From assembly GCA_043814765.1 (NCBI GenBank), contig JBDRJQ010000035.1, forward strand, positions 1 through 52,704: 52,704 nt of DNA, read 5' to 3'. The notes beneath the pieces were generated by a model that ran no database searches, was not told the DNA's origin, and worked only from the letters and a program-made list of their open reading frames with translations. Origin of the DNA: Nanobdellota archaeon. GTDB taxonomy: Archaea > Aenigmatarchaeota > Aenigmatarchaeia > QMZP01. Made by a program: the position numbers and the translations under genes. This document shows positions 10,666-33,001 of the stretch, one piece after another. The stretch's first letter is position 1. Every line of letters starts with the position of its first letter.

Positions 10666-10799
10666 TGGACCCGGGGGGATTTGAACCCCCAGCCTCTTGC
10701 ATTTCGTAAACCTCTGGAAGCGTAAGCTCCTTTTGGATTAAACCTTTTCTTGAAAAAGGTTTATGCCGAGCAAGTGATCTACCGTTGATCTACAGGCCC
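10666..10799 (-). tRNA. tRNA-Ala(GGC) with a 62-nt intron at 37/38 (10702-10763); C at position 33
   Basis: G3:U70 acceptor pair, CTTGC/GCAAG anticodon stem, GTTCAAAT T-loop, BHB-like junction. Confidence 0.88.
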
Positions 10800-13692: not shown

Positions 13693-13937
13693 CGCCGAGG
13701 ACAGGATTTCCGTTCCATGAAAGGCTTCAGCCTTCTTTTGGATTAAACCTTTTCTGAAAAAGGTTTATTTCGAACCTGCACGCCCAGAAGGGCACCAGAT
13801 CTCTCACTAGCTAAACTTTTCATATCCGCCGATCAAAGTCAAGCCAAATAATCACCTGAGTGCCAACAAAAGCTGGCATCATCATAAGATCTAGTGAAGA
13901 CTCAAGTCTGGCGCTTTAGCCATTCAGCCACCTCGGC
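13693..13937 (-). tRNA. tRNA-Ser(TGA) with two introns: 100 nt at 37/38 (13801-13900) and 62 nt at 59/60 (13707-13768)
   Basis: GCCGAGG/CCTCGGC-G acceptor, CCAGA-CT-TGA-G|A-TCTGG, long variable arm; TTCG/CGGA central helix at the T-loop BHB. Confidence 0.9.
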
Positions 13938-29155: not shown

Positions 29156-29320
29156 AAAACCCTTTTCAAGAAAAGGTTTAATCCAAAAGGAGCTAACGCT
29201 TCCAAAAAGAGAGAACCAGCGCCCTCTGGGCTTGCAGGTTCGAAATAAACCTTTTCCAGAAAAGGTTTAATCCAAAAGAAGGCTGAAGCCTTTCATGGAA
29301 CGGAAATCCTGTCCCCAGCG
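29120..29320 (+). tRNA. tRNA-Ser(CGA) with two introns: 58 nt at 37/38 (29156-29213) and 62 nt at 59/60 (29245-29306)
   Basis: GCTGGGG/CCCCAGC-G acceptor, CTGGT/ACCAG stem, long variable arm; both introns carry repeat A. Confidence 0.9.
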
Positions 29321-29380: not shown

Positions 29381-29560
29381 GGGTCCGTGGTCTAGTTGGT
29401 TATGACATCGCCTTGACGTGGCGGGGATCGCCGGTTCGAAATAAACCTTTTTCAAGAAAAGGTTTAATCCAAAAGGAGCGAACAGCATGACGGCTTTATT
29501 CAATCGATATAAGCCGTCCAATTATATTCGCTTCCTGGGGACGGAAATCCGGCCGGACCC
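29381..29560 (+). tRNA. tRNA-Val(GAC) with a 106-nt T-loop intron at 59/60 (29441-29546)
   Basis: GGGTCCG/CGGACCC-A acceptor, TT-GAC-GT loop, GCCGG-TTCGAA|T-CCGGC. Confidence 0.9.
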
Positions 29561-31918: not shown

Positions 31919-33001
31919 ATGAAAGCATATGTAGCTAGCTGTATTGTAGGTGTTTTTGCCTATGACGAAAAGGGTAACTTAATAGACAAAGTGTTATTTC
32001 CAAAAAAGATTGACGAAATAGCCGATAGACTTAGAAAAATCAAGGAAGGCGAAATGGTAAAGGAAGAGCATAAACTAGCAAAAACTCTTGGAATGGCTGG
32101 TTACGATGAAATTGTTTGGAACAAGCACTGCGAAGTTTCTGGTATAACTTGCATGTTTGAAAAGGATCATCTGGGCGAAGAGAAACTTCAATCAGAATTC
32201 AGAGAGTATGCTATAAAGTATAAGTGGTCAAGTACACAGGCAGAGATAAACGAAATTCTAACAAAGGTTAACATTGCACTAACTAAAACAAAACTACAGG
32301 AAGTTAAGAAAGACAGAATAATAATGCAGTCTATAAGCGCGCTAGACGAACTTGACAAGACAATTAATATTTTTTCAGAACATCTTACAGAGTGGTATGG
32401 TTTACATTTCCCTGAGCTCTTCAGACTGGTAGGTTCTCATGAACAGTATGCTAAACTGGTATTTGAAAACGGTGACAAGAAAAACATTCCAAATCCTAAA
32501 CTCAACAAAATAGCTGAGAAATCTGGTGGAATGAGTTTCAGTGAAGATGACTTGAAAAGCATCCAAACTTATTCTAAATCCATATTAGATATGTTTGGAA
32601 TGAAAAAGGAGATTACAAAGTATATAGAAAAAGAAACTCAGGAAAATTTTCCTAATATTTCAGCAATCGCAGGACCACTATTGGCTGCAAGGCTTCTGAA
32701 TTATGCTGGTGGATTGGAAAGAATGGCAAAGATGCCTTCATCCACTATTCAGCTTCTAGGAGCTGAGAAAGCACTGTTCCGCCATCTCCGCGGAGAAGGC
32801 AAGGCACCAAAGTTCGGCATCATATTCGGCCATCCTTACATCCAGAAAGCAGACAAGGACAAGAAAGGCAAGATATCTCGTTTGATAGCATCAAAATTGA
32901 GCCTTGCGTCAAGGTTTGATTACTTCTCCAAGGAAGACAAATCCAAGGAACTGGCAGAAGAATTGAAAAAACAAGTTGAAAGGATTTTTGGGAAAGAATA
33001 A
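31919..33001 (+). CDS. nop5: Box C/D RNP scaffold Nop5 (Nop56/58)
   Basis: EWYGLHFPEL, LAARLL and PSSTIQLLGAEKALF...PKFG motifs. Confidence 0.95.
   Translation: MKAYVASCIVGVFAYDEKGNLIDKVLFPKKIDEIADRLRKIKEGEMVKEEHKLAKTLGMAGYDEIVWNKHCEVSGITCMFEKDHLGEEKLQSEFREYAIKYKWSSTQAEINEILTKVNIALTKTKLQEVKKDRIIMQSISALDELDKTINIFSEHLTEWYGLHFPELFRLVGSHEQYAKLVFENGDKKNIPNPKLNKIAEKSGGMSFSEDDLKSIQTYSKSILDMFGMKKEITKYIEKETQENFPNISAIAGPLLAARLLNYAGGLERMAKMPSSTIQLLGAEKALFRHLRGEGKAPKFGIIFGHPYIQKADKDKKGKISRLIASKLSLASRFDYFSKEDKSKELAEELKKQVERIFGKE

Follow-up and report, generated by a model that had tools for sequence, protein, structure and literature searches.

A conserved, circularly permuted box C/D guide RNA in the tRNA-Ser(UGA) intron of an Aenigmatarchaeota archaeon, with predicted targets in 16S rRNA and the host tRNA

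The window analysed here is the whole 52,704-nucleotide (nt) contig JBDRJQ010000035.1 (contig C35) of a Nanobdellota archaeon (assembly GCA_043814765.1), a DPANN member of the Aenigmatarchaeota whose 859-kb assembly has a G+C content of 37% and many intron-bearing transfer RNAs (tRNAs). Its minus strand carries a tRNA-Ser(UGA) gene (13937–13693), read by eye, in which two introns separate exons at 13937–13901, 13800–13769 and 13706–13693. Intron 1 (13900–13801), the subject of this study, is 100 nt long, interrupts the gene at position 37/38 between G37 (13901) and A38 (13800), and agrees base for base with the intron delimited in an initial annotation of this DNA; it is conserved in relatives and is read below as a permuted box C/D small RNA (sRNA). 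Intron 2 (13768–13707, 62 nt) falls in the T-loop at position 59/60, outside the guide RNA. Removal of both introns leaves an 83-nt tRNA-Ser(tga) with a long variable arm that ARAGORN accepts, while the unspliced gene, because it carries two introns, is detected by neither ARAGORN nor the Rfam scan.

Read as RNA from the minus strand, intron 1 opens with a lead, UCUUCA (13900–13895), followed by the D guide CUAGAUCUU (intron nt 7–15, 13894–13886), for which the predicted target five nucleotides upstream of the box (N+5) is U39 (window 13799), and by box D, AUGA (13885–13882; family consensus NNGA, the GA being invariant in 46 sequences). A closing hairpin, UGAUGCCAGC-UUUU-GUUGGCA(C)UCA (13881–13857; in DNA a stem of TGATGCCAGC/GTTGGCA-C-TCA), stands in for the terminal stem (C-stem) of a C/D kink-turn, and a single G (13856) completes the three nucleotides between this stem and the GA of box C, GUGAUUA (13855–13849; family consensus AUGAYUU). 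The 12-nt D′ guide UUUGGCUUGACU (DNA TTTGGCTTGACT, 13848–13837), directed at 16S ribosomal RNA (rRNA), leads to box D′, UUGA (13836–13833; CUGA, CGGA, CCGA or CAGA in relatives), a 9-nt D′/C′ loop UCGGCGGAU (DNA TCGGCGGAT, 13832–13824) with the sequence CGGCGG, of which GGCGG is near-invariant, box C′, AUGAAAA (13823–13817; family consensus AUGARGA), and the 3′ tail GUUUAGCUAGUGAGAG (13816–13801). All the elements listed in the initial annotation are thus present where it had placed them. The tail segment CUAGUGAG pairs with intron nt 3–10, and the tail's GAG (−5 to −3, counted from the 3′ end of the intron) can pair with C32 U33 U34 as the central helix of the bulge-helix-bulge splicing motif, which has a 3-nt bulge at its 3′ site. 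The linear order in this genome is D guide–D–hairpin–C–D′ guide–D′–loop–C′, and not the canonical C–guide–D′–C′–guide–D within a terminal stem.

The comparison set consisted of about 100 relatives, with 91 genomes of the order and further families of the class. A BLAST search with the gene against 60 relatives found intron 1 to be conserved in the family, at an identity of about 70%. A core pattern, TGGCTTGACTNNGA...GGCGG, occurs in single copy in 63 of the 91 genomes of the order, where the reversed control pattern gave no match, and other families of the class have it as well; the same loci are retrieved by a frame pattern in which the guide is left open. All loci inspected, which include every one from this order, have the element in the tRNA-Ser(UGA) intron at position 37/38. 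The matches listed in a pattern scan of all GTDB genomes were mostly chance bacterial ones.

A kink-turn comprises a canonical stem, a 3-nt bulge and tandem G–A pairs, and position 6 of box C pairs with position 1 of box D. This geometry was sought in 47 parsed homologues with the same gene order, and in 46 sequences whose fixed-length segments were aligned without gaps over 66 columns. Throughout the 47, the hairpin begins directly after the GA of box D (NNGA), is unrelated in sequence and varies in length from 8 to about 56 nt, and its 3′ strand stops one nucleotide before the 7-nt box C, leaving exactly 3 nt from stem to GA; the 12-nt spacer, box D′, GGCGG loop and box C′ follow in that order, and the spacer from C to D′ measures exactly 12 nt in 47/47. 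The GA dinucleotides of boxes C and D are invariant or nearly so across the 46 aligned homologues. The proposed pairs are 93.2% paired, as against 76.2% in shuffled and at most 47% in slid controls, and their covariation score of 0.491 (0.172 in shuffles) was reached by none of 500 shuffles. The outermost hairpin pair is unbroken in 43 distinct sequences (GC 20, UA 14, AU 3, CG 2, GU 2, UG 2), and both box pairs covary: box C position 6 with box D position 1 (AU 34, UA 2, GC 1), and C′ position 6 with D′ position 1 (CG 40, UA 1), where G6:C1 is found in 40 of 43 distinct sequences. The sole UA case is the present genome, in which A6:U1 replaces G6:C1, so that its AUGAAAA and UUGA form a compensatory pair.

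There is accordingly strong comparative support for a predicted C/D kink-turn closed by the internal hairpin, together with a C′/D′ kink-loop (K-loop), and the existence of a conserved box C/D guide RNA with permuted gene order is confirmed, at the level of sequence comparison, far beyond chance. The suggestions made from the single sequence, that the intron is a circularly permuted box C/D RNA and that both box pairs can form kink-turns, are borne out at this level by the hairpin geometry, the covarying box pairs and relatives with a non-permuted order, and the boxes, whose lack of conservation in relatives would have spoken against them, are kept across the class. An alternative kink-turn, built from the 5′ NNGA and a conserved GA at intron −3/−2 with the guide–junction helix as its stem, needs a 4-nt bulge in the covarying register and has weaker support.

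Positions 2–11 of the D′ guide, which is the register used in structures of archaeal C/D ribonucleoproteins (RNPs), pair with 16S rRNA 1405–1414 (GUCAAGCCAA, C29:1278–1287) at the start of helix 44 through 10 contiguous Watson–Crick base pairs (bp), and the fifth nucleotide upstream of box D′ pairs with A1408 (E. coli numbering). A run of 10 pairs on the organism's own rRNAs and tRNAs is also attained by about 2% of 12-mers that are shuffled or random, a moderate significance for this genome taken alone. This Watson–Crick run statistic was used in place of a G–U-tolerant target scan, which was dropped as too permissive when 55 of 200 shuffles reached the observed run. The D′ guide matches 16S rRNA and not the host tRNA. 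The site proposed originally, a UAAGCCA motif in the 5′ part of the small-subunit (SSU) rRNA, is present as GACUAAGCCAUGC and offers only six Watson–Crick pairs plus a wobble, with guide position 11 left unexplained; a search of host rRNA and tRNA therefore upholds an rRNA target for this guide and moves it from the 5′ SSU motif to helix 44 (1405–1414, 10 bp).

The choice of helix 44 over the 5′ SSU motif follows from the comparative evidence. Nearly all homologues keep the guide core GGCUUGACU, even in families with introns that cannot otherwise be aligned, and conservation of the 16S segment GUCAAGCC likewise extends over most of the class. At the edge of the duplex the two sides change together: in family f1 all genomes with recovered 16S have A1414 (one reads AG and not AA at 1414–1415), and the guide has U11, giving U:A with 1414, in 8 of the 9 genomes for which both sequences are known, whereas other families have U1414 in 16S and A11 in the guide in nearly all genomes checked. 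The same core followed by box D′, GGCUUGACU-CUGA, occurs in sRNA13 of Nanoarchaeum equitans, an abundant free-standing C/D sRNA with the published predicted target CGUCAmAGCCACCC (PMC3491384 supplement), where guide position 11 is a G opposite C1414; Dennis et al. (PMC4644070) likewise list the equivalent of A1408 among predicted sites, both for N. equitans and for S. acidocaldarius. In families f21 and f22 the guide and D′ module is found within the rRNA operon, some 100–190 nt past the decoding region of 16S on the downstream side. On these grounds 16S A1408 is the predicted target of the D′ guide, with good comparative support.

Some lineages carry the guide in other settings or are without it. 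Families f21, f22 and f19 have the A1408 guide and CUGA followed by a short loop, of 3–5 nt in f21 and f22, and a canonical C′ (AUGAUGA), for example at G164:C50:10326–10349 and G248:C1:384987–385009, and this module is a predicted C/D sRNA of the rRNA operon spacer, co-transcribed with its target. A guide-agnostic frame search of the class found no element in lineages with 16S changes at 1408–1412. In two genomes of one genus (G060:C51:3478–3518 and G037:C36:3376–3416) the box frame is whole, the guide is decayed (CAUAACUUGACU and CAUAAAUUGACU, respectively) and the 16S is unchanged; the guide may be in the course of being lost there.

The other guide lies at the 5′ end of the intron. Its nine nucleotides, which precede box D, pair with the three final nucleotides of the intron (−3 to −1) and with A38–G43 of exon 2, forming 9–10 bp to pre-tRNA-Ser −3 to 44 in this genome, and in all 47 homologues 7–9 pairs form at an identical distance from the GA of box D, with U39 at N+5. 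Two positions of this guide covary repeatedly, both within and between families, in the 46-sequence alignment: guide position 7 with nt 41 (AU 23, GC 17, GU 3) and guide position 3 with the last intron nucleotide (AU 27, CG 14, UA 1, GU 1). The helix between intron nt 6–15 and −3 to 44 appears in the minimum-free-energy fold of the whole pre-tRNA (RNAfold, z = −4.6). It displaces nt 27–31, which the guide mimics in exon 1, and buries the 3′ splice site, and is for that reason not part of the splicing motif. The anticodon stem of the tRNA-Ser(CGA) encoded in the window differs, so that the D guide is specific for its host tRNA. In a genome of the same genus (locus L239, G001:C21:7100–7600) the intron is reduced to guide–D(AAGA)–hairpin–box C(AUGACUA)–AUUAGGAG, having lost the 16S guide, D′, loop and C′, which argues for an independent function of the guide–D–hairpin–C module. 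The D guide is thus predicted to target U39 of the host tRNA, again with good comparative support. The proposal that a second guide spans the splice junction and is complete only in the excised circle holds in part: the nine nucleotides that pair with the target lie entirely in the 5′ part of the intron, and it is the covalent link to box C′ that needs the circle. The tRNA-Ser(UGA) gene of G001 also has an extra intron in the anticodon stem.

Such a circle gains weight from the different orders in which related families carry the same parts. Families f4, f26, f30 and f32 have the canonical stem–C–guide–D′–loop–C′–guide–D–stem, the intron ends forming the terminal stem. Families f9, f11 (part) and f12 and one f7 genome have hairpin–C–guide–D′–loop–C′–guide–D, with box D one nucleotide before the 3′ splice site and a guide, UUAAGU, that pairs with nt 31–37 and selects U34; in these hairpin-first introns (e.g. 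L074) the C/D kink-turn forms only with the intron ends joined. The present genome and part of f11 have guide–D–hairpin–C–guide–D′–loop–C′. Two loci (L036 and L072) combine a 5′ U39 guide with a 3′ U34 guide, which is absent from the 3′ tail in this genome. These orders correspond to three cut points of one circle, namely within the terminal stem, between D and the hairpin, and between C′ and the D guide, and joining nt 100 to nt 1 of the present intron restores the canonical order, C–guide–D′–C′–(tail + guide)–D–stem. Since all orders are cuts of one circle, and circularisation is known for archaeal tRNA introns and for C/D sRNAs (PMC7994747, PMC3491384), the circle is the likely mature form, probably as a stable, rRNA-directed RNP.

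A further contact may involve the loop between D′ and C′. Its GGCGG is complementary to 16S 1399–1403 (CUGCC here, CCGCC elsewhere), immediately 5′ of the guide target, and in two f7 genomes a second copy of GGCGG is placed as a true D guide with C1402 at N+5. As a canonical guide with C′ serving as its D box, the GGCGG of the loop was discarded, the spacing to the box varying from 0 to 3 nt. It is a reasonable idea that GGCGG may give accessory pairing to rRNA 1399–1403. The same stretch is the target of a free-standing canonical box C/D sRNA in the window (10627–10566, minus strand), AUGAUGA-AAGCUAGUUGUA-UGAG-CCUCGGC-AUGAUUA-UGACGGGCAAU-CUGA, whose D guide UGACGGGCAAU matches 16S 1400–1408 and selects C1402, and whose presence indicates that this organism also uses ordinary C/D guides. 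A3 of this guide pairs with a lineage-specific U1400: all 16S sequences recovered for the order (its own at C29:1269–1292) read ACACUGCCCGUC, which puts U at E. coli position 1400 in place of the nearly universal C, and other families of the class mostly have C1400.

Intron 1 is most likely, on the sequence evidence assembled here, a box C/D sRNA in permuted order that guides 2′-O-methylation of 16S A1408 and of U39, with the circle as its probable mature form. The intron RNA would assemble with L7Ae, Nop5 and fibrillarin, the internal hairpin joining boxes D and C in place of a terminal stem to form the kink-turn, and boxes D′ and C′ forming the internal K-loop. By the N+5 rule the D′ guide would direct a methyl group to A1408 in the decoding centre, and the D guide one to U39, as the tRNA-Trp intron does in Euryarchaea; the GGCGG loop would add its pairing to 16S 1399–1403. 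The conformer with the U39 guide engaged would compete with both the anticodon stem and the bulge-helix-bulge splicing conformer, so that methylation of U39 would either precede splicing or act in trans. EndA would then excise the intron and RtcB circularise it, and since the gene order places the D guide and D first and C′ last, only then would the canonical C′–guide–D link exist, across a junction expected to read ...GCUAGUGAGAG|UCUUCACUAGAUC.... More tentatively, and with somewhat less than even confidence, the functional entity may be a circular intron RNP arising as a by-product of tRNA-Ser splicing, in which selection on the circle has allowed the splice sites to slide, giving three permutations within one class; it would couple maturation of tRNA-Ser(UGA) (Um39, and Um34 in sister families) to Am1408, the GGCGG contact extending the guide across the D′ box.

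Several observations weigh against this interpretation and lend some credit to others. The boxes of this genome (GUGAUUA, AUGA, UUGA, AUGAAAA) are degenerate relative to the textbook consensus, and no Rfam family matches the intron at gathering or permissive thresholds, the best being SNORD105 at 15 bits (E = 2.8), as might be expected of an ordinary bulge-helix-bulge intron whose boxes and complementarities are due to chance or to splicing signals. That such an intron would keep box positions, spacer length and guide core class-wide, with covariation in every helix and both box pairs, is hardly credible, and the splicing motif explains only nt −5 to −1. On the rRNA side, with G–U pairs allowed this genome has about 40 sites, many of them in mRNAs, at which the 12-nt guide would pair over at least 10 bp, the covariation of position 11 with 1414 amounts to few evolutionary events and has exceptions (G019, G043 and G129), and the GGCGG loop is without covariation and variable in its spacing to C′. 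The bipartite complementarity to one continuous stretch of 16S, by the guide at 1405–1414 and GGCGG at 1399–1403, might also belong to an rRNA-folding chaperone that pairs without methylating, the more so as C1402, in that stretch, is already the target of another, canonical sRNA encoded in the window. We consider a chaperone of this kind improbable, since a duplex at positions 2–11 of a 12-nt spacer has the geometry of a methylation guide, fibrillarin is encoded in the genome, and the homologous sRNA13 of N. equitans is a standard dual guide.

The 5′ element and the circle raise doubts of a different sort. A 7–8 bp hairpin with the tail can tie up four nucleotides of the U39 guide, and the guide–junction helix could be a splicing switch and not a methylation guide: it forms at the expense of the anticodon stem and hides the 3′ splice site, the 5′ element mimics exon 1 nt 27–31, and sister lineages have a U34 guide with a 3′-terminal box D, so that U39 methylation is not universal. 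Methylation would then be left to the 16S guide, with the 5′ element a structural switch that covers the anticodon stem and sets the timing of splicing. This is unlikely in view of the invariant distance (47/47) between the pairing register and the GA of box D, which always puts U39 at N+5, and of the retention in G001 of exactly the guide and kink-turn module; position 39 is also methylated through the tRNA-Trp intron guide, according to PMC7994747, which cites Clouet d'Orval 2001. As to the circle, its C′-to-D spacer is 31 nt here and 13 to more than 30 nt in relatives, against the fixed ~12 nt of canonical archaeal sRNAs. Circularisation might be irrelevant to a genuine C/D guide RNA, whose RNP would form on the pre-tRNA or the linear excised intron and whose guides would act as half-units, and this would suit the contiguity of both kink-turn modules in the linear RNA, the confinement of the pairing part of the D guide to the 5′ part of the intron, and G001, which has guide, D, hairpin and C with no C′ to be joined. 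Even so, we rate a purely linear RNP as possible but doubtful, because the three linear orders of one circle in related families are most easily explained by selection on the circle, hairpin-first relatives such as L074 need joined ends for their C/D kink-turn, and circularisation has precedent in archaeal tRNA introns and C/D sRNAs (PMC7994747, PMC3491384). A methylation guide RNA that probably matures as a circle is therefore the reading retained.

The genome encodes the proteins that such an RNP would require. Nop5, the core scaffold of box C/D RNPs, lies in the window (31919–32998, plus strand; Pfam Nop domain, E = 5.8e-63, and Nop5 N-terminal domain), fibrillarin at C29:87582–88214 (minus strand), L7Ae at C28:61847–62218 and the RtcB ligase on contig C20. 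The genes for Nop5 and fibrillarin, usually adjacent in archaea, are here on different contigs. The sole EndA splicing endonuclease domain found (C37:39348–39605) is part of an open frame of 406 amino acids, much longer than a single alpha subunit, which suggests a fused multi-unit enzyme of the broad-specificity kind, fitting the many non-canonical introns. The 16S gene is split over two contig ends (C29:1–1402 and C37:1–945), and its 3′ domain has an insertion of ~875 nt between model positions of about 1162 and 1248 that is probably an rRNA intron.

Intron 2 belongs to a dispersed repeat (AAUAAACCUUUUUCAGAAAAGGUUUAAUCCAAAAG...), copies of which, 85–95% identical, lie in introns of other tRNA genes (Ser-CGA, Ala, Trp, Val) as well as at additional loci. 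Within the window they lie at 29245–29306 (plus strand), 29430–29478 and 10727–10764, and elsewhere in the genome at C29:68256–68337, C8:23244–23316, C27:15686–15766 and C20:14181–14253; the family looks like a mobile intron or an element resembling miniature inverted-repeat transposable elements (MITE-like). Extra introns are also found in the tRNA-Ser gene of many relatives (L010/L061 in G011, L024/L059 in G033, L032 in G030, L027/L063 in G015, L066–L068, L077 and L078), which have up to three or four in total, at sites in the D-loop, anticodon stem and T-loop.

Should the proposed targets hold, a tRNA intron of genome-reduced DPANN archaea would supply the guide for ribose methylation of A1408 and would also mark its host tRNA, thus linking tRNA processing to ribosome maturation in organisms that keep very few genes. 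The canonical, hairpin-first and permuted forms in the family, with the reduced half-unit of the sister species, make up a natural gene-order series in which to ask whether the active RNP is circular or linear. Standard tRNA and snoRNA finders overlook both the tRNA and the guide RNA in such genomes.

In a literature search, no tRNA-Ser intron turned up as the host of a C/D RNA, no guide from a tRNA intron was found described as directed at rRNA, and no elements of these kinds were found recorded for Aenigmatarchaeota. Related systems are known for each aspect of the element. The closest is the tRNA-Trp intron RNA of Euryarchaeota (Haloferax volcanii; sR50 of Pyrococcus), which guides Cm34 and Um39 according to PMC7994747. 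It is likewise a C/D guide in a bulge-helix-bulge intron at 37/38, one of its guides is complementary to the 3′ exon and the splice junction and selects position 39, its guide and splicing conformers are alternatives, and the excised intron can circularise. The present element differs in its host, a DPANN tRNA-Ser(UGA), in placing box D and its guide first, and in that its second guide is predicted to address 16S A1408 and not C34 of the host, although some sister families do have a U34 guide. N. equitans sRNA13 shares the D′ guide core, the D′ box and the predicted 16S nucleotide (PMC3491384 supplement), but is free-standing and canonical in order, with a 3-nt D′/C′ loop without GGCGG, another D guide and no tRNA. 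As regards topology, the permuted sRNA24 of N. equitans, for which circular molecules have been detected (PMC3491384), and sR56/sR57 of Pyrobaculum also have box D upstream of box C and attain the right order only in a circle (PMC3491384; PMC6009581). These are independent genes with a circularisation route not defined by a splicing motif, whereas the permuted RNA described here is a bulge-helix-bulge intron, so that tRNA maturation would yield the circle as a by-product, through the tRNA splicing endonuclease and RtcB. Restoration of topology by bulge-helix-bulge cleavage and circular ligation is also seen in the permuted Thermoproteus signal recognition particle (SRP) RNA and in permuted tRNA genes (PMC4731332; PMC3218864); the SRP RNA is of another class, and in the present case the kink-turns would form in the linear RNA, only the C′–guide–D link needing the circle. 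A stable C/D-like RNA in a non-Trp tRNA intron of a DPANN archaeon is known from the elongator tRNA-Met of N. equitans (PMC3491384), which concerns another tRNA and has a single C and D box, no demonstrated target and no described permutation. In the tRNA-Ser(UGA) intron, one conserved element thus unites intron-encoded tRNA guides, permuted or circular C/D sRNAs, and RNA topology restored through the bulge-helix-bulge.

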